This document shows positions 1,392 through 46,000 of a DNA stretch of 64,000 nucleotides, piece after piece; within the stretch, counting starts at the first letter, position 1, and the number at the start of each line of letters is the position of its first letter. The notes under the pieces are model-generated. The model searched no databases, was not told where the DNA came from, and was given only the letters and a program-made list of their open reading frames with translations. The DNA is from Bugula neritina (Eukaryota; Animalia; Bryozoa), in NCBI GenBank assembly GCA_964035545.1, contig OZ037767.1, positions 23,390,628 through 23,454,627 on the forward strand, read 5' to 3'. The translations under genes and the position numbers were made by a program.

Positions 1392-1666
1392 AGCAGAAAG
1401 CCCTCTTTCTGATATATATAAAAAAAAACATTCATTAGTAACCGCATACATCAGTGGACAAAAATAATACATAATATACAGGAAGAGACATAATAATAGG
1501 CAGAGTCATTATAACAATCCGTTACCTACAATTGACCAGCTATAGACGAGGAATACCGGCTAGCTGTGGTATAAGACAGGGAATAACCTGTCAAGCAGTC
1601 AAGCATTTGCACGAGGTCCTGGGTTCCCCCAAGAGAATGAAGTTGCGGATTATTCTGACAGCAGAA

Positions 1667-2744: not shown

Positions 2745-2768
2745 ACTGAATGTGTGAAATGGTTTGAA

Positions 2769-7330: not shown

Positions 7331-8232
7331 CCCTGATTTAGGAAGGGACAGTATCGGCGGAAATGTCCTTGATTTCCGCACTCCCAGCAAAAGCTGACTG
7401 TTTCTCCCTGTGGCGGCGCCGGTGGCCGCATGGGCTCAGGGGCGGTACTCACTGGGGTTTGTGGTGTCAGTGTTGCTATCAGCTTGGCTAGCATGTCTGT
7501 CAGTTGAGTGACTTTCGATGCCGTCGCCAACTGGGACACGGCAGCCGCGGCGGGGGTTTCCTCCCCTTGTCCCGCGGCCGTGTCTGCGCGGTCTATCTCC
7601 ACTTGACGGGAGCTTCCGCGACTTTTATGCATCTGATTAGCTAGGAGGTAAGCTTCCCCCTCAGTCAGAGCATCTTCAACGGTGGTGACTCCCCTAGCTA
7701 GAAACTGGTGGTGGAGACCCAGATCGTCGACAGATGCTATGAAAGCGTCGAGGGTATACCTCTCGCGGTTGACTGGGGGCAAGTCGCTGTACGCGATCTG
7801 TGCCAGCTTCATGACCGCGGCGGCGTGCTCCCGCAGCGGGGTGCGGGGATCACGCCGCAACCTCTGCAATCGGGCCCTGGCATCTGTAGCAGAGAGGCCG
7901 AAGCGGGCCCGCAGAGAAGCAAAGATATTATCAATGTCTACGCCCAGCCCATAAGGCTTGGCTTTGTCCATCAATGCCATTCTAAGCTTCAGCAAGGCCA
8001 CCCTAGGGGGCCACTGGGCGACGTCCATTACGTCGCTAAACTCTTGGATAAACTGTTCCACCTCCTCTTCACCCGTGAAGGTGGGCGCCTTTAACCGGTA
8101 GCGGTCTTCAGTTAGTTCTCGCGGAACCCTTCGCTCTTCTACTACATGGTTAACAGGCATTGTCTCTACAGCATTGTCTCTACGCTCAACTTCTACTGCC
8201 GGTGGTTGAGTTCCAGCATTTTCAGTCTCCAT
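7279..8232 (-). CDS. gag: Gag (317 aa) with a single CCHC zinc knuckle
   Basis: ATG 12 nt after the PBS. Capsid-like motif APTFTGEEEVEQFI. Knuckle CWECGNQGHFRRYC. Confidence 0.93.
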   Translation of the reverse strand: METENAGTQPPAVEVERRDNAVETMPVNHVVEERRVPRELTEDRYRLKAPTFTGEEEVEQFIQEFSDVMDVAQWPPRVALLKLRMALMDKAKPYGLGVDIDNIFASLRARFGLSATDARARLQRLRRDPRTPLREHAAAVMKLAQIAYSDLPPVNRERYTLDAFIASVDDLGLHHQFLARGVTTVEDALTEGEAYLLANQMHKSRGSSRQVEIDRADTAAGQGEETPAAAAVSQLATASKVTQLTDMLAKLIATLTPQTPVSTAPEPMRPPAPPQGETVSFCWECGNQGHFRRYCPFLNQGLNYRGPQMFPPPAGRR

Positions 8233-8244
8233 CTTGGATGCACT

Positions 8245-8262
8245 ATCCCACTGCTGCCACCA
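8245..8262 (-). other. Primer binding site complementary to the 3' end of tRNA-Leu
   Basis: Minus strand TGGTGGCAGCAGTGGGAT, 1 nt after the 5' LTR. The plus strand ATCCCACTGCTGCCACCA resembles the 3' end of metazoan tRNA-Leu(AAG/TAG) plus CCA. Confidence 0.85.
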
Positions 8263-8263
8263 C

Positions 8264-8568
8264 TGTTATAGTTTTCAGATTCAGGGTTGATATGCTGTCC
8301 AGAGAGTCTATTTATTTGCTATAGAACTGCACCAGGATAAGTCGAGTGAACGAGTATATTTTACACACAATTATACATTATAAAAACGATACATTACATC
8401 CAGACAAGTTATACATCTAATCTATTTGACACTCTAGCTTCGACTGACTTAGCAGCGGGAAACTATAATTGCTGCTAACTATTAAATACGCTAATTGGCT
8501 ATTCATTGTTCCGGGTCAATTACGCGACCTTACATGTTGTGCTGCTGGTAGTTCCACGAACCACCACA
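8264..8568 (-). repeat. 5' LTR (305 bp)
   Basis: Matches 1076-1380 except at two positions (1094T/8282C and 1295C/8483T). Adjacent to the PBS. Confidence 0.97.
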
Positions 8569-18085: not shown

Positions 18086-21000
18086 TTAGCTGAGGGTCAA
18101 CCATTTTGGTCCGTATCTCAGTCTTTCTCTCCTGTTTCTATTTTCTATTTTTTGTCTCCTCAGCTCTCTCAGAATACGGGCTAAGCTTGGGTCAGGCTCT
18201 CTGGCAAGAGATCTGCCACTGCGGAAACTCATATCACTAGTCCCTCTAGCAAACCTGTAGCCTTGATTGTCGTATCCAATTTTCTTAGGAAACAGAATCA
18301 TTCTTTCACCATCTGGTCTTCGTACAGGTCTGGGCTGTTGATAGTTTCTGTTGAAGATAAACAACTGATAATAAAGCAGTTTAAGTGTGAACTCAGTTGC
18401 ATGTGTGGAAATAATTAAAACCAATCAAGGATGGTATATACTAACATAATATTATTTTAACTTTATAACTTTGTATAAAATTCTGCAGCTTTGAATATAC
18501 AGTGCATTCTTCAAAACCAGTAGGTTCGAAGTGAGCAAGTTTTGTCGATTTTATTTCAATCCATAGCTAAACCTCTCCCCCCTCCCTAAATTTATCACAT
18601 GCTTCAAAACAATTTAAAGTATATATATCCTAAGCAACAGGTACTTTCATTTAGCAGGGACAAATTTTAATAGCCCAAGTTTTCTAATTTCTTTATAAAT
18701 TACAGTTTGAAATCAAATTTAATTTATTCTTTTGTTACATTTAAAATTTTAAGCACACAAGCTTTTCTCAATTTCTCCTATACTGCACCTATCTCTAGCA
18801 GAGTTGACTTATATAATTAAGTAGAGGTTATGATAGTAAGAATACAGAATTAATGTCCATCTCTTATTGGCTAGGAGCTTTACATACTCATGCACTGTGA
18901 CTTTTGAAACTATAAGTCTAATAAAATAAAGTCTGATCCTGTTGAAAATGCAGTTAAATCATCTCAACCTATTGGTATGTAAGTAAGCAAATCACAATCT
19001 ATGACCTGTGTTTTCTATGTTTATGTTTAAGATATTTACTGCAAGTATCTTGATAAACTGTTTATATTAACACATCACAGGAAAATTGCAAGGTTTTTCT
19101 ACTAATTACTAGTTCCAGTGTTTGTGCTTTACCCAGGTGATGAAACACGTTATCATAACATAATGTGATGTTGAATAGCCAACAGACTAATGAACTAGTG
19201 ACTAGCTTCACCCACATTGCCTGGTCCAAAACACCAGTGGATATGTTGAATTTCGTTGCCATTAGAGATTTTATATTATATAAACAGGTCTACCTTTCAT
19301 ATTTTGGAGGAGATACCATAAGCACTTTTTGTCTGGTTTTTGGAACTTTGGTTGCTCTAAAGTTTATTTTTAGAGGTTGTCTACCTCTACCTCTCCTTTC
19401 TTTCTTCATTGTTTGTTTTGGCTTTACTGGCGTCTTTTTAGGGTTTTTTAAGCCTAACGCCTAGAAATTTGCAGAAAAGGAAGATGTTGGCTTTAACTAT
19501 ACAGACAAAATTTTAAACTATACCAAGGCTTTAAAATCTCATTTAGTACAACTGATCAAAACTTTAAGGAAAATTTGAAATTTTCAAAAACTTAATTATG
19601 GAAAACTGGCTGCCTAATGTCAAAATTATGCAATGCTGAATTGCAAAAATGTTATTACCAGAGAAAAACAGTTTAGTCTAACTCACATAGACTTGCAGCT
19701 ATGCCAAAATGATATGTTTAGCAAATTTAAAACATTAATAGTAATAATAAATTATAGCTCATGAGAAGCTAACAGGACTGCTTGTTTAAACGCTATATCA
19801 AAATTAATATCATATGGTTGTTTTGAAAAAATAGCTTAAACGTTATTAATTATTTGAACTAATTGAGATTTTTAAACAACTTTATGTTGATGACATTTCA
19901 AAATCTTTGTTTTTAAGGTTTTAAAATATCACTTTAGCTCTAACCCGATAGAACTTGGAGTCTTCTTTAGCAGTAGTTACATTGATAACTTCACCAGAAC
20001 TACCTACTAGTACTACGGGATCAAATGTCTTGTCAGAATCACTATCTACAAAGAAGTTCATGCAATTAGAATTTTTTGAACCTTATAATACAAGTTAGTA
20101 CTATAGATTAATTCTTGATAGGCATTTAAAGTCTGATATAAAAAACTGCTCAAGCTTTTTAAAAAATATAAGGAACTTTTAAAATTTTATCTAAATTTTT
20201 TTGAAATCTATAAAAGTACCATTATCTTGGCTTTTTGGTGCGTCAGCTTCTTCCTGGTTTTCGGTTTCTGCATCTTTAGTACTTGATAGTTTTTTATCTG
20301 TTGAAGGAATAGCCTCAATAATTTTGCTGGGATCTTCAGTGATTTTGTCGGGATCTTCAGTGATTTTGTCGGGATCTTCAGTTATTTTGTCAGAATCTTG
20401 AGTTTTTTCAACTTGCGGGACCACCTCAACTTTTTTTGGAGTATCATTATTTACTTCTCTTTTGGCAGTAGAAGAATTGTTTGTGGAAAATTTCGTGCTG
20501 GAGACTTTTTGCTTGTTTTTGGAAGGTTTAGTAAGCTTTTTAGGAATGTCTGGTTTTACTACTGCATCGTCATTTTTAGGAGTTGTCTCTACTTTAATTG
20601 GTTCTTCAGATCTTCTTGGCACTCTTATCTCTTTTGTAGACCTATCTCCTGAATTACAAACAGTATAAATACTAATATACTGCAATTTCTTTTATAAAAG
20701 TTGCAACAAACAACAGCCACCAAAGACATTCATTATGAGAAAATATTGTCCAATTCTGACAAAAATAAACTTTACTTATTATAAATCTAGACATGCATGT
20801 ACTGGTTACTGTAGAGATGAGTTGCCCCAGTAGCTCCTATGTAGTGTGATGTTAAGCACGCCAGCTTGCAAGTTGGAATTCTGAGGTTCAATTCCTAGTG
20901 GAGGCAGAAGTTTTTACAGTTACCAGATAAAGTACATGACAAACAGACACCAACAGCTCACAACATAAGAACTATATTATACAAACCTGCGTAAGGAACA

Positions 21001-24000
21001 GTGCTTGGTATTCTGTATTCCGTTTCACCTACTGGAGGGAGCAGAGCCACCTTCATTCTCTTGCATTTCGGATACTTTGAAGTGTTGCTCAAGACTTGAT
21101 GGTCAAGTTTGCCCTGATCTCGCTGCTTCCAATTCACCAGCATGTCTGTTAGATCTCTTTGGAGTGAATCATTGTAAGCATCACACATTTTTGCACGCTG
21201 CTCATCAGGTGTGTTGGGTTTTAGTGGTTTTGGAGCCAAAGCACTTTGCTTATAATTTTTAGTGGTTTGAGGCTTATTGTTCTCAATATGAATTTTTACT
21301 GGGTGGTTGCTCGTTGAGATTGGTGGTGCATCTTGTTGATTCGTCTTCATGCTTTTTCCTATGCTGTGAATTGCTTTCCAGATTGCTTCATGGATGCTGT
21401 TTGTTGAACTTGATGGACAATGCTTGTCAGAGGATTTGTGAGTTTTGTCTCGGTGCCGCTTTGCTCGACGCCGTTTTGCTCGTAACTGAGCTTCTTGCAA
21501 ATCCGTTCTTTGGCCAAGTTGCTGTTGGTCTAAATGATCTAGCGTACAATGCGGTTCATCTTTTTGATTTAATAATTTCTCAATCTCATCTAAATTTAGT
21601 ATTTTGTTTTCTGTTTCCAATGGTTGAACCTTTAATTGAGGAGAAAACATTTCTTTTTTATATGATTTATTTCCATATGATGGCATGTTTATTTTGGGCT
21701 TGAACACCAATCTCTGAGTTTGATTAGATGGATGGCTAGACTTCACTACTGAGGAAGGCTGCGCTTTCTTCTTTGATTTATGGCCACGGCTTTTTCCATC
21801 AAATCTATTTGCAGGGTGTTTATAATTTAGGCATGATTCTGCAGTTGAACAATCAGCAAGCTGAAGTTTCTTTCTAGGATAAGTGTGCAGACGGCTTTGA
21901 TCAAGTTGTTTTGATGAATGTGTACAAGTTTGCACGTGTTTTATGTCACTTTTACTGTCACTAGCATATTGGTGTTTTACTTCCTTACATTTGAATTTTG
22001 TTCCATGTCTTTTGATAATTGGGGAAGTTGTAACTTCAAGTTTCACACTGTTTCTTAGTGGTTGATATTGTTTTCTGTATTTTCGTACTTGTGACTTTTG
22101 AGCTCCATTGGGCTTCTTACCAGAAAGTTTATTTTCATCTCCACAAGTGGTATAAATAGGATGTTTATACTTTCTTCTAGATGGTTTCATAATACAATCT
22201 GTCAACTCACTGCTTAAAGAATCATCCTGTATGATTGTTTTAGATATTGGCCTCTTGTATGCTAGATAGTACTGCTGTGTGCTCATCCTGTTACAGTTTT
22301 CACAATTCCTGCAATTTGCTAACTTTTTGACTCTTGTCCTTTTTGATATTCTTCTGATGGTTTGTAGGTGATCACTATTTGGAATTTCCAAAGTTCTGTT
22401 TGGTGGCTGGTTTGTCATAGTGCTCTTTGAGGCTGTTGGGAGTACCTTTAGAAAGCGAGTAGTTTCACTTTCAAATTCATAGGGCTTGTAGGCCAATGTT
22501 GATTCTGGAACTATCTTGAAAAATTTTGGCCTCTGGTATGCTACAGTCACGTTAAAGAGTTGATCAGTGTAAACACATGCTGATATTAAACAGTTTTTTA
22601 TTACAGATTTTTCATAGTTGTACATATGTATAATTTAGCTTTAGTATGTACATACAAATAAATGTTTCTATAGGGTGGCTGCACATATTGATAAACTGAG
22701 AAAATACAGCAATACAATGAGAAGTTTTGCTTATGTATGTTTAGAATTGAAAAAAATCTGTACTTTCAAACCAAAAAACTTTTTTTGCATTTAATTGAAG
22801 TTACAAGTACAAAAGTATTTAAAATCTAAATGATGTAATCATGTAGTAGCAATTCTTCACAACTTTTATATTACTAAAATAGTAAAGTAAACACTCTGAA
22901 CTCTGGGGTAGCAAGTTTTGCAAAACCATTTCACATTATACTACATATCTATTGAAATACCTGTTTGAGCTTTTAGACTTTGAGAGTAGCTAGTATCACT
23001 TAGACATGAATGATCAGAGTTGTATCTTCTACTGTATTTCATTCTGGGTGTGCAAAGAGGTGTCAAGTCAGATGTGTTGTTATGTTTTGCTTTATTCCTG
23101 TTAATAAAAAGTTATAACATTTTTTTTGATCAAAATTGATTATTTTACTACTTTGATTTACTTTTGTGTCAAGTTAGTTAAGTTAGTCGCATACTATTTT
23201 AATCTTATTTGTTTTATTTGGCTGAATAACAATTTTAAATAATAATGAACTAGTAAATAACAGGAAATAGAACGAAATAACATCAAAACTAATGTTAATA
23301 TATGGTATACTGTATATTGCAACTTGTAGGGATATTTCTAATATATAGTTTATATTGCAACTTGCAGTGATAATGCTAATTTTAAAGAAGTTGAACACCT
23401 TTGCCATTCTTTGTGCTTTAACCTTGACTTCGTCATCAATCCTAGCCCAGCATTCCGGGAACATCTCTTTCCCTATAAGTAAAAGTTGTTTACACATATT
23501 TGTATAATAACCCATAAATTTATGGTTTTATGGTTTTTATTATGATGAATTTATTCATAATAATAATAATAATAATTAAGTAAACACTGCAACGGACTAA
23601 GGACTAAAAATAATCATTTTTTTGGTATTTTCAGAGCTGAAATGGTGATTGAATAAAGATACACCAAAATAAAATAGCCATACCTGGGGCACTTTAGGCA
23701 TGAAATATTTGTTCCAAATGCCTTTGAGTTTGAAAAGCAGCTGTCTATAAAGATTGAACTGCAATCCCTTAAAAGAGGCATAAAATATATAAAAATTACT
23801 CAAATACACAACATAATACAATGTCACAAAACTGTTGGTAGCAGTGTGACGAGTTCGAAAAGTCTGGTAGTCAGAAGTGTATAGACAAGTAGCATACAGC
23901 TTGCTAATCCAGTTGAGAGTAAATAGAGTTGTGAATATAAGTAGACTTTATTTCTCTAGTAAGATATGCACAGATGAATTTATAAAAATGAACTGATTCG

Positions 24001-26750
24001 TAAACACAACTGCCTCAGTATTTATAGTAAACAAAACACTCTAGAACATTCTCAAGCATTCCGGTATAGAAGATTCTAGTAGAAAGCATTCCCCACATGC
24101 CAATACTATTTATAGAAAATCAAAACAAAACAAAACATTGGAATTTCCATGGTTATTAACATGACTAATGAAAACAATAACAATGAACAATGACCCATCT
24201 CTTTGATCAGTTTAGAATATTTATGAACATTTTTGTATAATCATTAGGAAAAACCCGGTAAGTCTATAGGTATATATACACTCAGAATTTGTGACATACA
24301 ATTTTAATGGTTAGCATCTATGTTTTGCTGAGTATGAAATAGTGTAGCTATAATTTCGCAGACAAAATTAAACAAGTAAACCTTCACACCGAGCTCTACA
24401 TTTTACTGCTAGAAAGACAACTCTACTAAACATGTGGGAGTATGAAAAATGTGTGCTGGCTTATTAAGTAAGCTAGAAGCGTGCAGCAGTGCAACACTTC
24501 ACTATATCTAATGCAACAATCCTAATGCAAGTTTGGGGGGGGGGGGGTAACATTGCAGTACTAGTTTGATTTTAGAATGATTGCAGGTTGGACACTGCTA
24601 CAATTTTACAATTGATAGAAAATACAAAAACAAAAATAATTATATAGCTGAGAAAAAATACTCAAAAAGCTTATTTCATAGCAATGAAATAAATGAAACT
24701 AGCAAAAAATATTTATTAATATTTCTTTAAACTAACTATTGCATATATAACATTGCCAACAGTCAATATTGAATTAATATTAATTATTATGCAAGCAGCA
24801 GTAAAAAAACAGTGGCATCATTTCATTTTATAAATTTGAACAACATGTTATTGTGTACAATGAATGTGATGGCTTTGTTCAAGCGATGAGTGAGACACCA
24901 ATGTAAAAAGTTTTAGTAATTGCCCATGCTTATTTTACACATCAAATATTTATCTAACATAAACCAGGTGTGATCACCTTTTATCAGTTGGTAGTTGTAT
25001 ACACATACCTGAATGGTGAGAGACACCACCATTAGTATAATATACTCCATATTTAAACAATATGTGGCTAGTTGCTCCACATGCACTGTTTTCTTATTGC
25101 TCTCAGAAGAACTCCAGCTTGTCAGACTTAATAAATAACAATAGGCTGAGTTTCACATATAACATACATTAGTTTTAGCAGAGTAAAATGTCAGACTATC
25201 TAGCTTACGCTTAGATTGGGGCAAGTCTGGTAGTTTAATCATGCTTTATTAACTACAAGGTACTTCACTTGCCTGCCATTCAACTGGTAATACATTATGA
25301 GTGTATAACTAAGTTATTATAACACAGCTTATATTTTTTGTAAAACATTATTTTAGCTGCTTTTATTTCTGGTATTTTTTCATGAAGGGAAAAACACTGA
25401 CCAGCCACTTTTCTCCCTGTTTACTCTGCTTACATTTTATTTTGCTTGTTTTTCCCTTATAAATGCATTTTTGACCAAAATCTGCATGCTATTCCTCACA
25501 AACAGTTGAATTATGATTAAAAAATTGAAGTATTAATTTGATCAAGGACACATTAAACTCAAATAATACACACAACGTACCTACACAAAGCTCGTAGATT
25601 GCCTGCTGGCCAACCATATGCTATGAAATCAATGCTTTTCTCACAGAAACTGTAAACTCCTTGAGATAGACTAGAGGATTCCTATAAATGGAAAAAACGA
25701 AGTTGCTGGTAAAAATAGCCTAACATATAAATTTCAACAATAAAAAAGCTTAATTTGAGAAACTCGAGTAAAATATTAGAAGTTTACAAGTGATAAAAAT
25801 TGAACTATAGATTTCAGTATATGAATTTTTTCACATTAATTCTGTCTACCAATATACTATCTACTTAGTTTTGTATGTAACTCATTTAGCCTACTGAATG
25901 TCTGTCTGTTTGTATGTATGTATGTATTTCTAGATACGTCTATCTTGCCCCCACCGGGATTCGAATCACATACTTCCGGCTTGCAAGCAGGCTCGCTAAC
26001 CAATTGCACCACCAGGGTTGCTGTGTTAACTCAATGCTACGCCAAGTAAAATGAGTTAGCTTTCAACAGACTCCCAGTAATAAGTCTCAGGGTAAATATT
26101 TCTCCGTTTATAGACTATGCCCTATTAATACTAGTTTATATGCTGCATACCTTGGCTGTTCCAGCTGGTCTCTCCACATTTAAGCTTGTAGCTGTCTCAT
26201 AACTGGAAAGCAGTATGCCACCTGCAGTGTAAGCAGATGCCAGTAAAGACAACTACAATTAGATAAATAAAAGCATAAATACATTAAAGTAGCATAAGTT
26301 TTATATATTATATAGCATGCTATTTTTTGTAGTGATTTATATATTATGATCATTTAAAATAATTCCACATTCTAAAAGTTTCAACTGTTTAGACATCAAG
26401 CAATGTTGGTGCATAATAAATGTATAAAGTAGTATAGTTCTGGTCTGCAATGAAATAACATCTAATCTAAAATTCCAAATAATATCCTAAATCAAAACAG
26501 GTTTTGTAAAAAACCTATTTGGATTGGAGTCATAATATATTGAGTAATAAATAATTTACAAGGCTAACATAAAGAATATACAAATCAAATTTTCAACTGT
26601 AATCAGAAAAAAATTATAAAATATTTCTAGACTTTTTTAAACCACATTAACTTTTTAAAAAAATTGCTGCTTTTTATTAAAAAAACAATTTAAAAGGTTT
26701 TTTGCTGTTTGCAAGTACATATAATTATTAAATCTCGACTTACAGTGCAT
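18086..26750 (-). CDS. Uncharacterised ~1000-aa Lys/Ser/Thr/Arg-rich, probably disordered protein (11 coding exons)
   Basis: Phase-consistent exons 26750-26744, 26221-26151, 25681-25581, 25126-25009, ~23472-23399, ~23097-22961, 22540-20987, 20648-20220, 20045-19945, 19460-19294, ~18347-18086. No recognised domain. The start codon is uncertain. Confidence 0.72.
20320..20395 (-). repeat. Coding 21-bp tandem repeat (DKITEDP x3)
   Basis: GGGATCTTCAGTGATTTTGTC units in the exon. Confidence 0.85.
20824..20950 (+). mobile_element. tRNA(Ala-like)-derived SINE copy
   Basis: GTAGTGTGATGTTAAGCACGCCAGCTTGCAAGTTGGAATTCTGAGGTTCAATTCCTAGTGGAGGCA has a CTTGCAA loop and a B-box. The tail ACAAACAGACA is shared with the 25890-26020 copy. 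Confidence 0.6.
23822..24296. mobile_element. Solo LTR (475 bp) of a second LTR family, in an intron
   Basis: TGTCACAAA...TTTGTGACA inverted termini, flanked by a perfect 5-bp TSD TACAA (23817-23821 and 24297-24301). Confidence 0.85.
25890..26020 (-). mobile_element. tRNA-Ala(UGC)-like SINE / tRNA pseudogene with (TACA)n/(CAGA)n tail
   Basis: Minus strand GGTGGTGCAATTGGTTAGCGAGCCTGCTTGCAAGCCGGAAGTATGTGATTCGAATCCCGGTGGGGGCA. The acceptor stem is imperfect and a microsatellite tail follows. Confidence 0.65.
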
Positions 26751-27959
26751 AAATAAAGGCTGGCATGAGATGAAGTAGTTTGAAGTCTTCTAAAAAACAT
26801 CCAATAGCGAGCATACTTCCTGGTTGTATTCGTCAGCACAGTAACAGCCCCGTAGAGTAACTGTAACGTGTAGAAACTACACAGTAGTATATGGAGTAAT
26901 AGCCAGGAGCCTCTTGTGTTCTGGAAATATATTCATTTCTTTATTCACAGTAAATCAAAAACAGATTCAAGGTTTCACAGGTTTTGAATCCTATGAACAA
27001 ATTATTATCACTTATAAATATAATAGATGTAGAACAGCTTTACCATATTTATAAAATAACAAATATAATGTTTTTTTTATGTAAAATATTTATCCAAACA
27101 AATTATTATAGCCCCATTTGCAAAAAATAGTTTGTATTTATTTCAATTATGAAGCCTTTTTCACATGTTATAACACTTTAGAGTTTAGTGGTAAATAGAA
27201 TTTGTTGCTTATGAAAATAGCTGCCCAAGTTTTCTTTTCATGGTTTTTAATAGTCAATTAATTTTGTTTAATTGTTAAAAGCTGCAATTTACTAGGTTTT
27301 AAAAGTTCATAACTATATTTTACAGCTCTATAATGAAAATCTACCTACTTTTTTGCTTTTCTCCTGCTCCAGTTTTACTGTATTTGCTTGGTAGATCACA
27401 AACAGGGACAGGCACATTAAAAATACAGCTGTTAAATTTTCTCTGCTATTTCTGTGTTTCATAACTTTTAATGCAAATAAAGGTATGTCAGCTTAAAATC
27501 ACTAACAGCTATTTTTCAATAGCAAGTCTGCAATCTAAGCAGCAGCTAATGCAAAGATCATTTATTCAAAAATATCGAATACATCATATAAATATATAAT
27601 TTTTTCTGAACTGAAGAAAATTTTTGTGTGAAAAGTAGATTCTGATTCTGCTTAACTGGTGTATATTTTATAAAGTAAGTCACGTGACAAGCCTTATAGG
27701 TATTAGACTAGATGCGAGGTAAAACTCAGCAACAACTGCATGCATGCAAATTTTTAATCATGCATCAGTAGTACATACCTCTAAACAAGTTCGAGTAAAT
27801 AGTTGTGGAAACACTTTGTCATATAAAAATATTGTTTGAGAATTAACCTTGTGTGTAACAATTTGTAGCCCTGAGGTAGTGTATGACTCAATGCTGTGTT
27901 TTTGATGAACACATTCTTGTATACTAGTTAATTGCTCTGGTAGACTAGCTGCAAGAGTA

Positions 27960-29280
27960 ATGGGTTCAAACGCAAGCAGCGATGAAGATAAACAAGACAT
28001 CCCATCTGAAAGTTTCCATCTGCAGTATATGAGTGGATTACTACACCATGGGGCCAAGGATAAAGTTAGAAGATACCAAAGTTGCCTCTACAATACTTAT
28101 GCAGCTCCAATTGTTAAATATCATCGTGATAGTGTCTTAACTACGAAAGCTCAATCATCAAGTTCCAACGGTAAGTGTGTAGATTATGCAATAATTTTAA
28201 GAGTTTAAAAGCAGGTTTACATTTAAGTTTATGTTGGGAGTGTACATATAAAAAATTTTTGCTATAAGCTTATAAGTTGGAATAGATGTTTCATCTTATT
28301 AGTTTTTCATCATTTCTCACTACATCTCTTTTAGCTGTTCTCAGGGGAATAGGTAGCCTAATAGATGTTCGATGAAATTTTACGTTGCATTGCTTACTAC
28401 CCCACACCCAATTTGTTACATCACCTGTCACACTACCTGTCACATCACCTTTTCACAATCTGTCATACAGCTTGTCATATCACCTGTCATACCCTGTGAT
28501 ACAACTGGTCCTATTACTTGTCATGCCACCTGTCATGACACTTGCCATAACCTGTCATACAACTGGTCATAGCACATGTCACATACATACCATAAAGTTG
28601 TTTCTTCAAAATAATATTACCTCCTATTGTCCCATAGTAGTTTAGAATTATTATGCAATCTATTATTAATCAAACTAGATATGTGGAAGAGTTTGCTTCT
28701 ATTCAATTGTAGTAATTAAATAATTGATACTAATTATAATTATTGCAATTACTATAAAACATTTTCAAGTTCAGTCTTATTACTATAAATTAAGTTAATT
28801 TTTAGTGCATTCGAAATTGTACTGCTATAACCTTGTAGCAAAACTTCAACATATTCTAATGTGATTTACAAACACTTTTTAATTAAAATAGCTTATATAA
28901 AAGTAAGTTTGAGGTTTTAATGCTATGTTTTAAAAAATGTATATAGTGTTTAATTTGTATCAAATTTTTTAGCTGCCATTAGGAATTCAAACGAAAAAGG
29001 TCAATCAACAATTTCAAAGAGTGAAATTTTAAAGAAGAATGTAATTCAGACAACGAAGGGCTGCGATGAAATCAATCAAATGAATATTGAAAATATAAAT
29101 GTATTGCCCCTCTCTATTACCAGACGCCAGAGTTGTCTACCATCATCTATAGAGATTAGTATTCTAACAAAACACCTCAACTTTAAACTCTTCTCTAGAA
29201 AAACCAAAATTTTAAAGAACATTCACAACAGAGAAAGCAATAGTGAAAGAAGAAGACTTTTACAGTATAAGTTGAGTTGA
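27960..29280 (+). CDS. Uncharacterised 172-aa protein with N-myristoylation-type start (MGSNAS)
   Basis: Exon 27960-28170 (G|GTAAGT) joins in phase 1 to 28973-29280 (TTTTTTAG|CT) and stays open to TGA. Confidence 0.65.
28415..28585. repeat. Degenerate ~12-bp minisatellite (CACCTGTCATAC-like)
   Basis: Repeated cctgtcac/cctgtcat/cttgtcat units in an intron. Confidence 0.75.
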
Positions 29281-30259
29281 TACTTATGTTGTCTGACAAT
29301 TTCCCTCAATTTATTAATTTATTGTATCATAAAATCAACAGATTAGAGTTGCCATTTAAATAAAAATGCTGTTTAAAATGAAATATTTACGTAATATGAG
29401 CTAGAGTTTAGTTTAAATGTTTGTAAATATAAATGCAAATATACTATTATCTAAATAAAGAAACTGATTGGTTCATTACTGGCTCCTTAGTTTGATTTAC
29501 CTGAACTCTTAGACTATAGAGAAATACAATATCAATACTGAACAAAAGTTGTTACACCCCTTTCTTAACATGCCTACTGGTCAACTTGGTTATTTAGATT
29601 ATACCTTTAAAGAAAATATAACACAATTTTATCAACAACTATTAAATATTTGAGATAGTTTATATATTGACAACATTTTTCACAATTAGCTTAGTGAAAT
29701 ATAAATCAAATTTTAGGCAACATTTCTGTCAATTCATGAATGGTTCTGTCCAAACCTACACACCCAATAGTTTCTTGTAGACATGCACAGCAAGTTATTA
29801 ATATTATTGTCTCTGTCAAATAACATGCTGTAAGTTTATAACACACCAGCAGATTTCATTCTACCTCCTGGAGTATTGGTTTTTAACTTTTATTATACTT
29901 TTAGCATTTTTTTGTGTAAGTTAAAACTCCAGGGTATTCTTATAGTAAAGTTATTTATAGCTCTGGTAAAATTATTACAAATTAATAAGTAAATAACTGT
30001 CAAAGTAGTGGTTAAGTGCAGAGGAGAATATTTTTGCCTGGGTTGAGCACTTATTTTTTGCCGTGACGTTTGAGTTGGCTTTATTTCATAGTTAGAATTA
30101 ATGTTTTGTGCTAAGAAAAATGTTTGAACTAGCTCCATATATATATAGGGCGTTGTAGCATGCAATTTTAAAAGTATTAGTCTATAGTTAGTGAGTGTGT
30201 GGAAGTATTAGGGTGAAAGCTATATAAGACTAAAGTTAACTGAAAAATTTCAAAATAAT

Positions 30260-30425
30260 CCTGTGAAGTTTAGAGGTAGTTTGTAACACTTAGAAGTAGT
30301 TTTGTAAAGTTTAGAGGTGGTTCTGTAACATTTAGAGGTAAATCTGTAAAGTTTAAAAATAATTCTTTGAGGCTTAGGCCTTAGAGGTAGCCCTGTAAGA
30401 TTTAGAGTTGGCTGTGTAAAGTTAA
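30260..30425. repeat. Degenerate ~21-bp minisatellite
   Basis: TGTAAAGTTTAGAGGTAGTT-like units. Confidence 0.7.
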
Positions 30426-30778
30426 GCTACTAGAATTTATCATCTACATTCTATTTGGTGGCCAGTGAGTCAGTTAGTTTCTGAAGATGCATATAAAAAA
30501 ACACTATCTATTAAAGTTACTAAAATTTTAGAGAAAATTTATTCAATAAGGCAAAGTGTTACATGAATGTTTTGGATGACTGTACTAATCCAAACAGGTG
30601 GGGAATATTGCCAATGCTATAATTATTAAGCACAGTAATGAATAAAAATGTTAACCCTGATTACAAAGTAATGATGTGGCAAATATATCCATGTAGCTTA
30701 TATGATAGACAATTTTCTTCTGTAGCATATGGTGACGGTATAATATATACTATTGGTTGACTCAGGTTAAGTTTCTAA

Positions 30779-30830
30779 CCAATCAGTTGACAGCTACACT
30801 CAGGACTCCAGCCCAAAGACTATATATAAG
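30779..30830 (+). promoter_or_regulatory. CCAAT box and TATA box of the defensin-like gene
   Basis: CCAATC at 30779 and TATATATAAG at 30821-30830, upstream of a non-coding exon ending CAG|GTAAGT at ~30906. Confidence 0.6.
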
Positions 30831-31049
30831 TAGAGGTTATTTTATACTAAGTATTGTGTGTTTCTTCTTTGTTATAGCATACTGTAGACTATTAAACATT
30901 AGCCAGGTAAGTTAGTCAATGTATTTTACTCTTTAGCTAATATTAACAAGTATGTTTATTAAAGATTCATCATATTTTGAATAATGTATAAATTAATATG
31001 GAAATATAAATAAGAATTCACTCAAATGCTTGTAGTTCACAGATTCAAT

Positions 31050-31492
31050 ATGAAGTTCTTTGCTTTCTTATCAATTACCATCATCATCATGGCTTTCCTT
31101 GGTAAGCATAAAACTGTTTTATATTATGTTAATATTGACAAACAATACTATATATTCATACTCCTTGCTCTGAATATAGTAACTATAATAAAGTTGACAG
31201 AAATATAAATATCACCTCCTGAAATACTTGTGTGTTTAACAAATAAACTTGAGACCTGAATCATATATCATTACTAGCACCAATTACAGTATCTCATTAA
31301 ACTATTATATTATGTTCATGAAGTTTATAATAAACCTTAAGTATTCTGTTTTCTTTAGATCTGGTGGAAGCAGGTCCCACCACAACTAAATCAAGTTTGA
31401 AAGAGTGTAAGAAATATTGCTACAAGAGAGGTTATACCCGAGGGAGTTATTTGTTCAAGTTCATATGCACCTGCAGAGGCGAAAAAAGTTAG
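31050..31492 (+). CDS. Secreted cationic cysteine-stabilised (CxxxC...CxC) defensin-like peptide, 61-aa precursor
   Basis: Exons 31050-31101 and 31359-31492 give MKFFAFLSITIIIMAFLDLVEA|GPTTTKSSLKECKKYCYKRGYTRGSYLFKFICTCRGEKS*. Phase-1 intron in the signal peptide. AATAAA at 31598. Confidence 0.82.
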
Positions 31493-31664
31493 TTAGGCTA
31501 ATTTTGAAAGTGGTTTCACTTATCACCAAACATTTGATTTTGTAAACTATAAAGATAATTGCTCTCTATTTTTGTGAATTGTAATGCTTGTAATTACAAT
31601 AAAATTTTCTAGTTTTAATATCGGTTTTGAAAAAAATAAAGCAAATTATTTGATTGACATGTAC

Positions 31665-31945
31665 AAATATATACACTTTATACATATATACACTTTATAC
31701 CCATATAGGCTATATACTGTACACCTATATACACTTTATACCTATATATACTATATACCTATATACACGTATTACCTATATACACTTTATACCTATATAC
31801 ACTTTACACCCATATCTACTTTACACCTATATACACTTTATACCTATATACACTTATTACCTATATACACTTTATACATATATACACTTTATACCTATAT
31901 ATACTTTATACCTACGTACACTTTATACCTATATACACTTTATGC
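31665..31945. repeat. 17-bp minisatellite
   Basis: TATACCTATATACACTT units. Confidence 0.9.
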
Positions 31946-34496
31946 AGTAAAATACTGTTATGAGTAAAAGTAAAACTTTAAGTTACAAATTAGGGTTCTA
32001 TCCTGTGACAATCTGATCAATAACTGGAGAGCCTGCCTTAAGAATTTGTAATTTCATGAGAAATATATTATAAAATAAACACATAGTCATGAATTCTATC
32101 ATGCACTGACCACACTGGCATTTCAAACTTGGTAAACTCCCAAACATGTTAAATAAACCAAATATTTATTATTAAGTTGAAATATATAAAAAATACTTAA
32201 GGAAAGCTTCAAACTATTACAAATACTGAAAAACAAAACTAACCTGTGCCTCTTTAAGTTAATTCCAATTCAAATATAATAAACTGTTAAATATTCATTG
32301 CATTATACTGCTTTTACAACTTGAAATAATTATGCTATGTGATAACTTAACAGTGCTGATTTTATTTTTTTTGCTAGAAGTCGGCTGTTATAATTCCTCC
32401 CCCAATAATAAATAAAAAATACATCACTGCAAAAACCACCTTCAAGTGAATCAGTTGAACAACTAACAGCAGTAAATAAGACTATTCATCAGTATCCTGA
32501 TTCTTATTCTGCTGCATATTCTGCATATTCATATACTAATTTTGAAGGGTGTGTCAACCAGACACATAAACACGCAGAAATAAAATTTTAATGTATATAT
32601 AAAAGCATTTACACTGATATACTACTTATAAATCCTCACGCAAAATCAAAATTATATGCTACTAAAACTGAGTGCAGATTTGGCGTGTTTTAGATGGGCC
32701 ACCTGTATAGCCTACATGCTATTTCCTATTTATCTTACAATACATAAATATTATATTCATTATTTTCTATCAACAACCTCATGGGATTAGAGAACTTGGA
32801 TTAACACCTGTGAAACATTGCTTTGCTTGTCACTGTTCACCATATAATATATATTTAGTGTTTTCACAACTAGTGGTGGGCTGCAGAGATCGCAGGAGCT
32901 CAGCTATGGAGAGAAGCCCATAGCTAGCTACCCCAAGAGCTAGCAGCATGTTTACATGCACAGTGTGTGTATGTGTGTTTCATAGTTCATCATCATAGTA
33001 TATTAATAGCTCCTAAACCAAATATTGGTTACCCTGATGAGTTTCAATTAGTAGAGCCAGAGAGCAAGTTATACTACTAATAATCTTACATTAAACACAA
33101 GATACATATTAGTAACTATTGAAATCTAAGAGCAGAAGCTATATTATTTTCAAGTTATCAGAGAAGAGTGAAAGGTTTGTCTGCTAAGAATTTTCTTGTT
33201 TTTTATTTAGACTTATATTGTGTGTTTAGTTTATCTAGATTTCACAGTGTAGCTTCGTGAGCAAAAGTATTATAAGGTGGAATGAAATACTAATAACTAC
33301 ACTCACAAGACATCAGTTGAATTCCACACTCTTAGAGGAATACAATACATTTGTCTACAGTTATATTTTTCATTTCATACAGTATACTATAATATAACAT
33401 TTAATAGACACTTGTTATACAGGCACACTTAATTGATGGGTATGATAGATATAATTAGTTTAATGTGTGTCAGCATATTAACTTCTAGCCAAAGGATTAT
33501 AACATTTTATCCTTTAGCTATTCAACACTTTCTTTTATATGCAGAGCTATGATGGGTAACTAAAGAAAAAGCCTTCTAGGTTGGAGTGGCAGCTTTGAAA
33601 CTAAGTTACTTCTGCCTTTTATTCACTAGAGCCCGAACTGATCAGATGTGCCTAGAGAAGGGAAGCTTCTAGTACCAATACCACCAGTCAGTACAATTTC
33701 AACACAATTGGCTAGGAGCTCCGATCCCAGTCAAAGACATTACACACTGCTTCTACAAAGACAATAGTAGTCTGTCTCTTTCTTTCTCAATGTTTGGTAA
33801 GTTATCTTTTAAATAATTTTGTTAGCTTTGCCTGTCTTACTGTCATTGGTTTAACCAAAGTCTCTTTTTCTTTAGCTGGTACTTTCTCTCGTATGGTAAA
33901 CTTGAAAACCGACTTTAATAGTAGCACGATTCTTTAGATTGATGTGGCTTTTGTGACATGGGTAGTTTATTTTGGACCTAGACTTGACTTAGTTGCATAA
34001 TTTGCAATTTAAAATTGATTTTCTATGATTTATATTTTCGAAGACTTTAGTTAAAAACCCGTTAAGGTGAAGCTCTTTGTGAATCTATGCTATGCAAGAG
34101 TCTACATGTTGGTTGGCTATTTCAAAATTTGTGCTCACAAGTTCCTGCATGAATAAAAAAAGATTGACTATACAAAAACAATTAATAATAAAAGTCTCAA
34201 ATGAAGCCCTGCATGGCCAATTGAATTGTTTTGGTGAGAGACTGGTGAATTCCAGAAAGTTCTGCTTTGTTCTAAATTTTCAGCTGCTTCAGCAGCACTT
34301 ATCACACCCCCTGTCAACACATGACATATTTTGAGTTCTTGTGCTTGTTTGTGGACTTGATGATTGAATATTCTCTTTATAGGTCTGTAATTATAAATTA
34401 AGTGAAGTTAGTTGTTTTTCAGACACTGTTGTAGCCTGTTTTCTTAAAAGAAGTGAATTCTTGTTTACCAGATGGTAGCTGGAAACTGTTTGATGC

Positions 34497-34663: not shown

Positions 34664-35882
34664 TCTCTCTCTCTCTCTTGCAGTCAGTCGATACGACTAT
34701 GACTGTTTTATGGATTCGGCTTAAATTTGGTTGCAGCTCTCCACGCAGCTCTGTTGTCAGCTGTCTGCTGCCATGAACTCAAGTTTATTGCTCTCCATTT
34801 CATATTCCTCTTAGCAACATCTTTAAGTCTGAGTCTAGGTCGCCCTGTATTTCGTTTACCCTCTTTCAGCTGAGAGTAGAGCAATTGTGTTGGTAGCCGG
34901 CTATGTTCCATCCTGTGCACATGGCCTAGCCATCTCAAGTTCTTTTCTATAAGGATGTCCGCCATGCTTGGCAAATTGGCACGTCTTAATATTTCTTCAT
35001 TCCTAACTTTGTCATACCATTTTACGGCCATTATGTCTCTCAGTTGTCTCATCATGAAAGCGCTTAGCTTCTTCACCTGTGTCCTGTATATTGTCCATGT
35101 TTCTGCTCCATACAGCAGGCTTGAGAGCACCACCGCTTTGTAGACTTTACACTTTACCCTGATAGATACATGTCTGTTGTTCCAGAGTCTCTGCTGCAGC
35201 TTTCCGTAAGCCGCACTTGCTTTACTTAGTTTGCTCCGTGGCTCTTTACCTATTTTTGCTGTACAGGAAACAGTGCTTCCTAGATAAGTAACGTCTGAGG
35301 CAAGTGCAACTGGTTCTTGATCTATCATGACAACTTCAGGTTCAGGTAGAGGGTGGATGAGTTTGATTGGCTGGTACATGCATTCTGTCTTTTTTATGTT
35401 GATTTCTAAGCTAAACTGAGCTGCTGCTTTTGCAAAGTTGTTCACTAGCACTTGCATATCTGCAGCGCAGCGCAATGTGCCACCAAAGCACTGTCATCAG
35501 CAAACAACATCTCTCTGACTAGGTGTTTGGTAGTACGGGTCTTAGACTTGAACTGAGCCACATCAAAGAGATCAGCCCCATGTCGAGTTTGAATATAAAT
35601 CCCTTCATTTACATTTTTAAATGCCACCTCAAGCATAGCGGTCAAGTATAATGAAAATAGTGTGGGCGCAAGAACACACCCCTACTTGACACCATTGGTT
35701 ACTGTAAACTCATTTGAAGCATCTTTACCTTGCACTACCTTGGCTTGCATGCCTGCATGAAGAGCTTATATCAGGTTGGTGACCTTCTCAGTTAAGCCAA
35801 ACTTCTTCAGTACCCTCCAGAGGCCATCTCTTGATACTGTATCAAAGGCTTTTGTAAAGTCTATAAATACAGCATACAGCTT
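34664..35882 (-). mobile_element. 5'-truncated, decayed RTE-clade LINE (RT and C-terminal region)
   Basis: FIDFTKAFDTVSR, VK*GCVLAP, MLFADD, LLYGAETW, LRWLGHVHRM...GRP. Stops at ~35683 and ~35768, a 5-nt duplication frameshift at ~35465, a 3' stem-loop at 34681-34705 and a (GA)n tail. Confidence 0.93.
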
Positions 35883-40058: not shown

Positions 40059-43000
40059 CTAAACATCAGTAGATAGTGACTCTGCCAGCTGTATCTTCTC
40101 TTGATACTCAAAGAAGTTTGCGAGTTCGGCATCTTCGGCTCTTAGAGCTTGATCCTTGGCCGTGTGCCCCTGTTGACATATAGTTATGGATAAGTCATTC
40201 TCAGTCTTCAACAGTTTTACTGATTTTATAGCAGATTTCAGAATAAAACACCGAGTGCTCTTTAATCAGCTGTATTCAGTTAGTTGAAGTCATACTGATA
40301 AGTAAAATAGTTCATTTTACAAAATTTAAAAATAACCAAATATTAGAATATAAAAAGAAATGTTTTAATTATTTAACATTGACAAGTTCAACATTTTTAG
40401 AGTTATCATACACACGCACACGCACACACACACACACTCGCACGCACACACAAACGGATGTCTGCATGCACACACATAATGTATATATACACTTCAAAGC
40501 AGCATAATTTTATACACACTGTAGCCAAAAGAAATTTAAGCTTACCACTTTGTCTTTAAGAAGTACATTTGCCCCTGCCTGTATTAGGATTCTACAGATT
40601 GTACGCCGCTGGTACCAGGCAGCTTTATGTAGAGCTGTTTGACCTCTACAATAGATGTAATATAGTACTTACCTAACAGTAATAGTAGACTAAAATGTTC
40701 TAAAAATAAATTGCCGTCGCTATATTTGATATGATATGCGGTAGCCTTTTACTGATATACGAATGAAATAATTTCACTTGAGTTTGGCCATGTACTAATA
40801 ACACTATTAATAAAGAAGCTGATACAATGTACAGCCAGCTTATTTTGTCCAATGGTGAAAAAAACTACATCAACTTTTAAAACATAGACACAGACATTCT
40901 GGAAAAAGAACTTCATTTTCTATAATAACATATTTTATACTTTTCACTGTCCAGCTGGTTCAGGAGTGAGACGTGACAATTCTGAACAATATAGGCAGCT
41001 ATCTCCTTGCAGTTGAACCTGGCAGCGTAATGTAATAACGTCATGTCACTATTATCCGCCTGCATGATGTTTCCACCTGACGAATGAGCGTCCACGAATT
41101 GCTTATAGTCATTCCTCTTTACTGCATCCAGCATGACCTTATCATATGAGGCAGCGGGCTTTTCAGAGGAAACACTATAAAATATCCGTATGTTCTTTAA
41201 GAGATATAGACATTAAAACTTTCAATTTAGTAGTAAGACACTTTGATAAGGAAAGCCGTGGTCATGGTTGAACCCAGCCATTGATTTAAAGAAAAACATC
41301 CTGATAATTGCTCCTGTGTCTCAAACACATGCTGTTCATTTACCAAAACCCTTAATCTTAGTCGAGGGGAAGGGGAGATGTATGAATAGGTACAATAAAA
41401 GGTAAGATACTTGAATAAAATTATTCAACAGGTTCTAATGAAGAATCATCTTACACCAGAAAGACTTAAACAAAGAATTAAAACTTGGAAAAACTGCAGC
41501 TATTAATTTTGAATGAATTAGCCATTTTCACCTCATGCTAAAATTTGAATCCTACATATAAGAAGCAATAGGAGTTGTCAGTTTTAGATAAAATGTTTAA
41601 GGTTTAGAAATAGCTAATAAAGGTAAAAAAAAATTTTTTTTACTGTTGCACTGTTTCAATGAATAGTGTACTTAAAAAATTCTCCAGTAATCATGTGTGC
41701 TATAAAGCCAAAGAGTGTATTTGTAATTGCCCTTCCATGCACAGCAATATAAAGTCAATGTGTATTTTACTTGCGCCTTTGCTACGTAATGCTACAGATT
41801 TTACTTACGCTCACCCTTTGCCATATGTTTTAGTAGGATAATACTGAATTCTCTAAGCAATAAATACAGCCAGCCCACAATCATATTGAGCTACATACGT
41901 ATATCAAGACATGCAAATAAACCTACACAGGAGACCTGGGAGGAGTGATGGGGAACTTGAAGTTGGACATAATGCTACTTGCTGACTCTGCTGTTCTTGG
42001 AAGGCTGTCGGCTGCTTCATCACCCTGAAGTTAACAAGATATAATATATGCAATAAGACAAACTACATGCTGCAGATAGTTACCTAAATGTCAGTTTAAA
42101 TATTTTTACATTATTTAAACTTTAGTATTTCCGTTTCACTAGAAGTAACGATTGAAATTGGACTAATGAATTGACACGAAACATTTATAAACTACTGAGA
42201 CATTTGAACACTTAGACACAAGTGATTACCTGTAAAGGAAGTGTAGCCAACTCCGGGTCTAGTATATACAAATCTACACTGGATATGTCTGTAACATAAT
42301 GCAGGTGCTCCTGGCCTTGATCAATGCGAAAAAACCTAACCGAAGTAGTGGCTACAAATTATAAATAATATAATTATTCTTAACATTAATTTTTTTTAAC
42401 TATGTTAAATTTTTTTTAATCTAATAATCATTGCACACATTTTCAAGAAATAAATAAACAAGTTAGAGCAAATAACTGAACATGTGACAGTTTAGTACTA
42501 GGACTGAAGGTGTGGAAATACAACTAAAGTCTAGACAGAATATACCAGACTATCAGTTATAGAAATAAGAAGGCCTTCAGTAAAAATAACTACACTATTA
42601 GTAGAGGAACTTATAATGATGTGGTTATAGTGACCATAATAACCTAACCATCATACCAACCTGTTACACCATTTAAAGCAGTTTCAGTTCTTAATTTGCC
42701 ATATTGTTTTCTATATACACAAATCAACTTTCAACTATGTGTATTTTGCACCAAAATCTAAAGTAATGCTTTCTGCTTTAAACAGTCCAACTTGTAGCAA
42801 AACATCTGCACACTAATCAGTTTTTTAACAATATATGTATATGAGAAATAAACTCGAAGGTTTCAAACCAACTATGATAATTTTAATAACATTATCTGCA
42901 AACACTTTAGTGCAAACAGTACAATACAAGTTAATGTGTGTCTTACAATCAAGAAAGCACCAACGAGGAGATAACGGCTGTACACAACGCAGCTTAGAAG

Positions 43001-46000
43001 CTCTCTTAGACTCTCCCGTCTCCTCCTTGTCACCAGATTCCTCCAGCTGCAGCATGTCCTTGCCAAGTCTGTTAATCTGCTCCCTCACCGCTTCTAGATC
43101 AGCGTCTCTCAGCACCACAATAAGGCCCAGGGGTACGGCTGCCAATAGCAACACAATGGTCTATTATACAAGTTTAGTTCAATGGGTGGGCAACTCCTAA
43201 ATTGTAACTTGGTTTTGTATAGAAATATAACATTATATCAAGTATAGGCTCCATAAGGTTAGATTACTTATTTACACAAGTTTGTTATAGCAAACTTGAA
43301 ATCCCTGGCAATACAAAGTGTTGAGGTTTTCCCAAAATAAAATGAAGATTTCAAACCAAATATTACGATGAAATTGTATAACTTACAAACTGCTTCGAGT
43401 TTAGCTTTGTCGTAATGATAAGTTTCATAGTCTTTCAGTCCAATTCGATTCACCTGCAGACGAATTCTGCTACTAAGCTGCATTGCGCTCTCTCTAAAAA
43501 CAGATTACCTGCATCATTACCTGCATCATTACCTGCGTCATTACCTGCGCTACTACCTGTGCCATTACCTGCACTATTACCTGCACTACTATCTATGACC
43601 TGTACTATTATCTGTGTTATGAGAAGAACACAGCACTAACGTTATACACGAGGAAATTCAAAAATGAGATGGGGCTATCTATCTACTGAACCATAACAGC
43701 CAGCTCTGCTGCCTTGCAGTAATGATTTAGTAAGTTAGTTAGTGCAGCTCATTGCTAAGTTTACTCTGTAAAGTGAGGGATAGCTGTGAAGTTCACAAGT
43801 AATCTCATAATTTCTAATATTTGTAAATTTCTATACATAGTCACACAGGCTATATATAACTGTGGTAGAATGCAGTAATTTAAATGCTTGAACTTACTAA
43901 GTCTAATAAACTGCCTATAAATAGTAAACAACAATATCTTGTAAACTAAGAAATACTGATATTGAACATATACTATACTAAATTTTTTAACAGAGTTATG
44001 ACAGATAATAGCAAAATGAATTATATTTTACTCTAACTTAAGCACTAAGAAGAGACTTTGTCTTGCATACAGTGAAAACCAACATGAATGAATTATAATA
44101 TTTAGTTTTCAATATAAGCAAGTTATATAAGTTGATGATAGTTGGAAAATGTAACATGTACAACACATGGCAAGTACCCAACCATTATATACATCACTAT
44201 AATAAGTTAGGCTTTGCGTATGTAGTTCAAGATTCAAAAATATATTTGTGAATTCACTGTAATTAATAGCGTTTTGAAACACATACTTTACATTGGATAG
44301 TTGCGTTCCCGCTTTCTTTTGCTTCATCAACATCTTAGCCTGATTCCTTAACTTCATAACAATCACCGAAGGTTGGAGCCTACAAGGTTCACCATCAACC
44401 TGAGAAAAAATAATTCACCACCATTAAAACAGGGAAGTTACATAGTGCACATAAGTCTAGTAAGGTAGGCTAATAACTACATTGAGGAAAAATGTGCAAC
44501 ACATAGAAAGGAATAGGATGAAGACTGAGTACTATACTCTTGAAAAAAAAACACAAGTGAAGCCTATTGATTCACATAGTGATAATGATGGCTACAAAAA
44601 AAAACTTTAATAGAGCTTCAACTTTTTTAAGAGAGAAGAGCCTAAACAGATTTTTGGTTATTTCTATTTTGAAATAAAATTAATATTAAAAAAAGAGTGC
44701 TGAAGCATAATCAATCTATCTATAGATGTCAAGGAAACATTGTGAGTTCCAACTTCAAGTCCGGGATTTGCTGAGATCTTGTTGTAAAGAATCTGAATGC
44801 AATGACTCACCTGCATGGGGATTGATTTGGTTGTTGTTAGCTTTACTTCACTACACTGTAATATCTTTTCACCATGACCACCAACTTGAAGTGTCGCCTG
44901 AAACATATCTGTACTGTAACCAAAGTTAAGTAACTGAAGAGGCTACCTTGCGGTCATAAATACACAACTTTTACACACTGAATTAGAAAAGTTATTCAAG
45001 TAAAATGATTTGCAAGAATAAAATATTTTTTATTTCACTAAGTTTTATTAGATTTAGTAAATTGTTAGGGCAACTAAAAGGTAAACTAGAAGCTTCATGC
45101 TGTTACGAACATTTTATGGTTAAAATGATAAGATATGTTGAAACCAATAGTCAAATATTTTATAGCTTCGGCAGACAGTATTCATCATTATTCCTATAGT
45201 CCGCTGACCATAAGTCAAGTTGCACTCGATAACTTTTTAAGCAATTGATGCAGAACAAAAGAGACTGCAGGAGATAAGTTACAACAAACATCTCACCAGC
45301 TGTGTAGTAGTGAAACCTATAACTTCTAACTTTCCATCATCAGCACGGGGCGGGTCAAACTGACTGCCATGCGTCCCCCAAGGATTAGTCCCCGAGGCAT
45401 ACTTGGGGATGTTGAGGAAAAGCAAGCAGTGTAACTTGAGCTCTTTCATTTTCTGTGTCACATCTTCCCCATCGCACTAAATTTAAAATACTATCCGTTA
45501 CATAGAACAAAACAGAAATCTCTAAAATCGAGAACTATTATTGTTTTGAACTCCTCACAACCACAAATCAGTTGTAATGCAGCAAAAGGGAAGCTATAAA
45601 GCTGATATACATAAAAATTGAGTAGTTCCAATATATTGCTAGAAATTCTAGAGCAAGGTCTCCAGCTGATTCAGCAGTCAAAATGAAAACAATAAACAAC
45701 TATCTAACTCAACTGGTTAATGATTAATCATTTTTCTCAATGAAATTTATGTAAACACATAATAGCTTGTAACAACAGCATTTAAGCAGATTCACTAATT
45801 TTCGTCAAAGTTTATATCAAGACACTTTCTGGCTAGCAAAATGTCTGACATAATTCTCCTTCTAGACTTGATAGTTTTTACAGTTGTATACTGAAGATGA
45901 TGAAATATAACAGACTCTTATAACAAACCATATATCATTTTAGTTATTTTACTGATGGCAGATACAAACGCATTATTATGTACTATAAAACTAAGCTCTT

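Follow-up and report, generated by a model that had tools for sequence, protein, structure and literature searches.

A predicted two-disulfide, defensin-like peptide gene in the bryozoan Bugula neritina

Our analysis suggests that a short locus in the genome of the bryozoan Bugula neritina is an intact three-exon gene, and that its product is probably a secreted, two-disulfide CS-alpha-beta peptide of 39 residues and net charge +8 that likely acts in host defence by binding membranes. The locus lies within the window, by which we mean the whole 64,000-nucleotide stretch of contig OZ037767.1 that was analysed. A first-pass annotation of this DNA had proposed a minimal defensin lacking exactly one bonded pair of cysteines, the first and fourth (C1 and C4). 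Below, we consider the gene, the predicted fold and its possible origin, a second copy that covers its promoter and leader, and what the peptide may do.

Gene structure and surrounding sequence

The first-pass annotation described a complete small gene running from a CCAAT box to an AATAAA signal, and all of its features were found in place. They are as follows.

30779..30783, + strand: CCAAT box, an inferred promoter element, unchanged in the second copy (in which likeness starts at 30776)
30821..30830, + strand: TATA box, unchanged in the second copy
30851..30906, + strand: non-coding exon 1, its start assumed about 30 nt past the TATA box
30907..31042, + strand: intron 1, 136 nt, GT-AG, within the 5' UTR
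31043..31101, + strand: exon 2, with the ATG at 31050 and the first 17 codons of a predicted signal peptide
31102..31358, + strand: intron 2, 257 nt, GT-AG, phase 1
31359..31372, + strand: end of the predicted signal peptide, with cleavage inferred after Ala22 (-3 Val / -1 Ala)
31373..31489, + strand: predicted mature 39-aa cationic peptide, with Cys12, 16, 32 and 34
31490..31492, + strand: TAG stop
31598..31603, + strand: AATAAA polyadenylation signal, with a further AATAAA at 31635

The predicted spliced product is 61 aa long. Splice sites were ranked with generic weight matrices that we wrote ourselves. Among 7372 GT sites, the donor at 30907 stands in the top 0.03% and that of intron 2 in the top 1.8%; among 8079 AG sites, the acceptors reach the top 4.2% (intron 1) and the top 2.6% (intron 2). 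Position 31358 is the sole acceptor with a positive score within 31102-31400. A frameshifted or alternative-acceptor reading of the gene was dropped on splice-site scores. The open frame, both splice pairs, the TATA box and the AATAAA signal are all intact, and the 5' UTR, inferred to be 63 nt long, contains no upstream ATG. Judged by its sequence, the locus is a real, well-formed three-exon gene, predicted to encode a secreted peptide. A second TATA-like box at 31005-31014, inside intron 1 and 45 nt 5' of the ATG, could be an alternative start.

Residues 3-17 of the leader form a 15-residue apolar core with a mean Kyte-Doolittle value of 2.7, and the cleavage site was placed by the -3/-1 rule. 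The predicted mature peptide has 39 residues, including 7 Lys, 3 Arg and 2 Glu, which gives a net charge of +8 and a pI of 9.7; the length, composition and charge given in the first-pass annotation agree with our recomputed values. The hydrophobic predicted leader and the charge of +8 are thus those of a secreted cationic peptide. An intron in the 5' UTR together with a phase-1 intron where the leader ends is described for CS-alpha-beta genes in the available part of PMC5308243, where phase-1 introns are also said to be common in many secreted proteins.

The gene is flanked by degenerate 21-nt repeats upstream (30241-30414) and by a 17-nt minisatellite just downstream (31677-31976). Further downstream, a multi-exon diacylglycerol kinase zeta gene lies on the minus strand at about 40077-57281. 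A first query with a kinase exon found no candidate; for one exon, the top 45 or so matches are nearly all lophotrochozoan. Among 29 of 120 matches, chosen for breadth, the Watersipora kinase has the highest score against the window, at 1142 summed bits, the runner-up reaching 1002. In a tree built by a quick method from 28 chosen proteins and the window pieces found by an annelid query, the window joins Watersipora, the one bryozoan included, with SH-aLRT 100 and 66% identity, both branches being long. An LTR retrotransposon occupies 1076-8563 on the minus strand, with 300-nt terminal repeats that are 99% identical, frames for a gag-like protein, protease, reverse transcriptase, RNase H and integrase, and an additional frame of 286 aa that weakly matches a C2H2 zinc finger; it looks recently inserted. 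Lys/Ser-rich open frames of 558 and 166 aa at 20191-22634 (minus strand), with no Pfam match, are probably exons of an uncharacterised gene. Broken frames at 34708-35681 (minus strand) also have no Pfam match and resemble a LINE reverse transcriptase. Exon-like frames at 10193-15339 (plus strand) give weak matches to a coiled-coil and to SH3-like repeats, and we take them to be possibly a gene of ubiquitin-ligase type.

Predicted fold and origin of the four-cysteine pattern

The mature peptide contains only four cysteines (12, 16, 32 and 34), spaced 3-15-1. None occurs among the 11 residues preceding Cys12, so that C1 is absent, and Tyr26 stands at the position of C4, 9 residues after Cys16 and 5 before Cys32. 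The GXC gamma-core motif is correspondingly incomplete, with Gly24 retained and the cysteine replaced (Gly24-X-Tyr26). The first-pass annotation was right about the four cysteines; as a correction to its description, C4 is substituted and not deleted. By itself, the loose motif CX3C-X8..20-CXC is weak evidence, since 32% of 300 simulated regions of 55 kb contained it at least once; the motif with two glycines occurred in 0 of 300 such regions, although that pattern was drawn afterwards from the observed peptide.

AlphaFold2, run without an alignment, predicts a helix at residues 9-18 and strands at 23-27 and 31-35 (best pLDDT 88.0). A 43-residue form yields the same helix and hairpin plus an N-terminal strand (best pLDDT 86.2). 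One of the five models was confident in each run, the others scoring 59-72 (63-72 in the 39-residue run). The CSH motif is present in the model, with Cys12 and Cys16 on the helix and Cys32 and Cys34 on the last strand, and the CSH rule as given in PMC5308243 predicts disulfides Cys12-Cys32 and Cys16-Cys34. By title, 40 of the 47 Foldseek rows listed are defensins or scorpion peptides; of the rest, five are titled cystine-dense or Egk peptides and two are unrelated. The search with the 43-residue model shifts toward plant defensins and brings in more unrelated rows, and neither AlphaFold2 model had a Foldseek match at E <= 0.001. The best VIA-align Z was 4.5 (rmsd 1.9, 36 residues aligned), and unrelated folds, PAN/apple among them, are scattered through the matches.

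Sequence-based comparisons point in the same direction. The best Pfam match is Defensin-like PF24552 (E 0.016), whose 15.7 bits lie below the curated threshold of 27. Three of five PDB sequence matches are defensins, at E 0.42-1.4, and none of the five is better than 0.42. In the ESM Atlas, the nearest clusters are those of scorpion short toxins, of beta-toxins and of gamma-thionins, in the range 0.76-0.81 and all below 0.9. These similarity sources are not mutually independent, as all respond to the same cysteine and glycine pattern; the proposed CS-alpha-beta assignment rests on agreeing weak, partly dependent signals together with the exact spacing. The earlier proposal of a CS-alpha-beta fold without exactly C1-C4 is thus favoured by spacing, modelled topology and weak but consistent look-alikes, none of them significant singly. 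The structural check that it suggested returned a defensin-like helix and hairpin and mostly CS-alpha-beta look-alikes, but not significance.

The closest comparison is with six-cysteine invertebrate defensins (Anopheles variants 2E3E and 2NY9, actinomycesin 2RU0, heliomicin/ARD1). These share with the predicted product a signal followed by a short cationic peptide, the CX3C helix, the CXC strand, a Gly-Tyr after the helix, the gamma-core glycine and the 9+1+5 register. They have three disulfides, whereas two are predicted here, with no C1 and a tyrosine at C4; the bryozoan peptide also has no propeptide and scores below every family cut-off. Many insect defensins are spaced 3-9-5-1, whereas the myxobacterial peptide AdDLP is spaced 3-18-1 (PMC5116183, available part). 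The 15-residue spacer equals the 9+1+5 register and has Tyr26 where C4 would stand, so a secondary loss of C1 and C4 appears likelier than an AdDLP-like ancestral state. A six-cysteine ancestor would have lost C1 and C4, a tyrosine would have taken the C4 position, and the gene would have been duplicated.

The first-pass annotation had drawn a parallel with AdDLP. The parallel holds in that both peptides have the four CSH cysteines and no others, and hence no GXC cysteine (PMC5116183). Compared by cysteine spacing, AdDLP has a spacer of 18 residues against 15 here, the bryozoan gene is an animal gene with introns, and the likeness is probably convergent. Nonetheless, we considered whether the peptide could be a retained ancestral, CSH-only molecule of the AdDLP type, or a convergent fold unrelated to defensins. 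In the text available of PMC5116183, AdDLP, with these same four cysteines, is proposed as the ancestral form. In the 533-row sheet of Tarr 2016, which we inspected by eye, AdDLP is the sole row with exactly four CSH cysteines. Sponge, tardigrade and gastropod sequences are grouped with it, but they carry extra cysteines (PMC5116183); CSH-only cores in animals have some precedent because of these three sequences. Empty homologue searches also fit such a reading, although searches with peptides this short are insensitive: a word-index search with 23-76 aa found no homologue, phmmer returned 0 matches at E <= 0.001 among 1.84 billion representatives, and 0 of 586 pattern matches in metagenome contigs and 0 of 600 in prokaryote genomes were confirmed as homologues. 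Against it, the spacer is 15 rather than 18, the gamma-core glycine and the exact register are retained, an ungapped alignment to actinomycesin sets Tyr26 on its fourth cysteine, and no prokaryotic relative was found. We therefore regard a relic or an unrelated convergent fold as improbable, and prefer secondary loss from a six-cysteine defensin.

Cysteine reduction has been described elsewhere. One bacterial defensin has tyrosines in place of a cysteine pair (PMC11561630), and the cysteine-reduced insect peptides LmDEF4 (PMC4996505) and DvirARP (PMC11116330) lose other cysteines, as far as the available parts of these sources describe them. Mollusc defensins, mytilins, myticins and macins have eight or more cysteines (PMC5116183, in part), against four here. 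In the literature searched, mostly papers outside subscription, we found no report of a natural four-cysteine animal defensin and none of a bryozoan CS-alpha-beta peptide.

A second copy, matched over promoter and leader

The first-pass annotation had also suggested looking for paralogues. A second copy, about 90% alike over 30776-31144, was found in the one public DNA run that contains the stretch (X1), known from the promoter and leader part alone and in a run that is possibly the window's own source and hence not independent. Between 31164 and 31655 no contig of this run matched the gene, a gap that carries no weight because a filter removes some of the records. No RNA run containing the stretch turned up, which bears in neither direction on expression. 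A 6657-nt contig of this run, at depth 115, equals the window exactly over 29800-30902, whereas two contigs at depths 94 and 95 match 30776-30902 with 9 differing letters and 30887-31144 with 24; we infer that these two belong to one copy. A 44-nt contig spanning the first donor has a depth of 230, about double. A 129-nt contig (depth 86), which matches 31025-31070 with 7 differences, may represent a third copy. No further copy of the gene was found within the window. A 60-nt stretch at 22579-22637 is 75% alike to intron 1 (E 3e-4); it is AT-rich and the likeness is probably due to chance.

Likeness begins 3 bases 5' of the CCAAT box and stops 43 nt into intron 2, beyond which both flanks differ. 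Because the upstream flanks are unlike, we read the second copy as a paralogue rather than an allele, that is, as the product of gene duplication. All 8 listed indels fall within intron 1. Of the 28 listed substitutions, the promoter and exon 1 carry 6 (over 131 nt), intron 1 carries 14 (136 nt), exon 2 carries 6 (59 nt) and intron 2 carries 2 (over 43 nt), so that substitution density in exon 2 is not below that in intron 1. The promoter boxes, the ATG, the splice dinucleotides and the leader frame are all unchanged, and the five coding changes of exon 2 include one silent change and the small or hydrophobic exchanges Thr to Ala, Met to Thr and Phe to Leu.

The existence of at least one other copy, seen over the promoter and leader only, raises the question of whether the window gene arose by duplication from a normal six-cysteine defensin and is now decaying, with selection gone. 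In favour of decay, an analogue of coprisin without C1-C4 was left with no antibacterial activity at concentrations up to 100 uM (PMC4281341, available part). The intact open frame, splice pairs, TATA box and AATAAA argue against decay, as does the confident AlphaFold2 model. Moreover, the two missing cysteines correspond to a bonded pair; by simple arithmetic, 15 pairs are possible, of which 3 would be bonded and 1 would be this dispensable pair. Decay consequently seems a poor explanation, and we continue with the reading of an intact gene.

Proposed function and significance

Under our preferred reading, the disulfides Cys12-Cys32 and Cys16-Cys34 would tie the predicted helix (residues 9-18) to the last strand, and the N-terminal arm would run along the hairpin, occupying the site of the would-be third disulfide. 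Basic residues occur in all seven segments of the peptide, four of them on the helix, and the hairpin tip (residues 26-31) is aromatic and apolar, with one lysine. The ten basic residues could mediate electrostatic capture on fungal, protist or bacterial anionic lipids, after which the aromatic tip could insert and disturb the membrane. Capture followed by insertion is the general mode described for such peptides (PMC8819291, in part).

The coprisin Cys3,34-to-Ala analogue, in which exactly the C1-C4 bond is gone, is a close experimental counterpart, engineered there and natural here. According to the available part of PMC4281341, the analogue kept its fold, as seen by CD spectrum, and most of its antifungal activity. 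AdDLP is described as having no antibacterial or antifungal activity and as acting only on Plasmodium (PMC5116183). Because of these two activity profiles, eukaryotic microbes are the likelier targets, and the bryozoan peptide is perhaps antifungal or anti-protist more than antibacterial. Two other CS-alpha-beta peptides, xanthusin-1 (PMC11561630) and Zytrisin-1 (PMC5234102), are reported in the available parts of these sources to be without detectable antimicrobial activity. No canonical kappa-B site occurs in 24256-32131, and therefore induction is unsupported. A near-palindromic, G-rich 12-mer at 30601-30612 is Rel-type-like, though off the consensus searched.

A different possibility is that the secreted peptide has a non-microbial target: it might bind an ion channel or a receptor and so keep off predators or settling larvae, or it might serve in signalling. 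Short scorpion CS-alpha-beta peptides (cobatoxin, agitoxin 2, OSK1) are similar in size and in predicted beta-alpha-beta-beta topology (TM-score 0.6-0.7), and a phase-1 leader intron is common to both (PMC5308243, in part). They give the top Foldseek TM-scores, up to 0.71, and scorpion short toxins head the ESM Atlas clusters (0.81). The short N-terminal arm and predicted third strand are as in scorpion peptides, and a leader that is conserved next to a mature part that may have diverged is toxin-family-like. However, the bryozoan peptide has four cysteines and a host that is likely a non-venomous filter feeder, and to our knowledge bryozoans have no venom apparatus. The KCXN signature of the gamma-core, which is tied to channel block (PMC5116183), is also absent, Ser25 and Tyr26 occupying those positions, which makes a channel blocker less likely and weakens the toxin-like option of the first-pass annotation. 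The charge of +8 and the apolar hairpin tip are instead typical of antimicrobial peptides (PMC8819291). Defensins and toxins of this superfamily are described as not separable by sequence alone (PMC5116183). We consider a non-microbial target unlikely on balance; by analogy, the peptide most likely works like a defensin, though with four cysteines it falls outside the six-cysteine group.

Bryozoan gene-encoded antimicrobial peptides are represented in the available parts of two sources by big defensins only (PMC10414684, PMC7203481). Those of Flustra foliacea are the sole bryozoan entries (2 rows) among 390 lophotrochozoan antimicrobial peptides (PMC10414684), and they belong to another superfamily, being beta-defensin-related with six cysteines and a precursor of about 119 aa. 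In part of PMC5116183, the CS-alpha-beta fold is regarded as complete once the third disulfide is present, and the two-disulfide state is taken for an ancestral, bacterial one. An animal peptide that has come to two disulfides naturally, by loss, would directly test whether this bond is dispensable and which activity remains. With 39 residues and two predicted disulfides, the peptide would be easily synthesised and assayed.

Finally, we tentatively raise, as a possibility short of an even chance, that the gene belongs to an undescribed bryozoan multigene family of naturally two-disulfide CS-alpha-beta peptides, in which a conserved promoter-leader cassette is joined to fast-changing mature exons and which would hold the first exactly four-cysteine members of this superfamily in animals. 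Such a family, if it exists, would show that natural peptides can lose the third disulfide, and it would equip bryozoan colonies with a gene-encoded means of resisting fouling microbes or small grazers.
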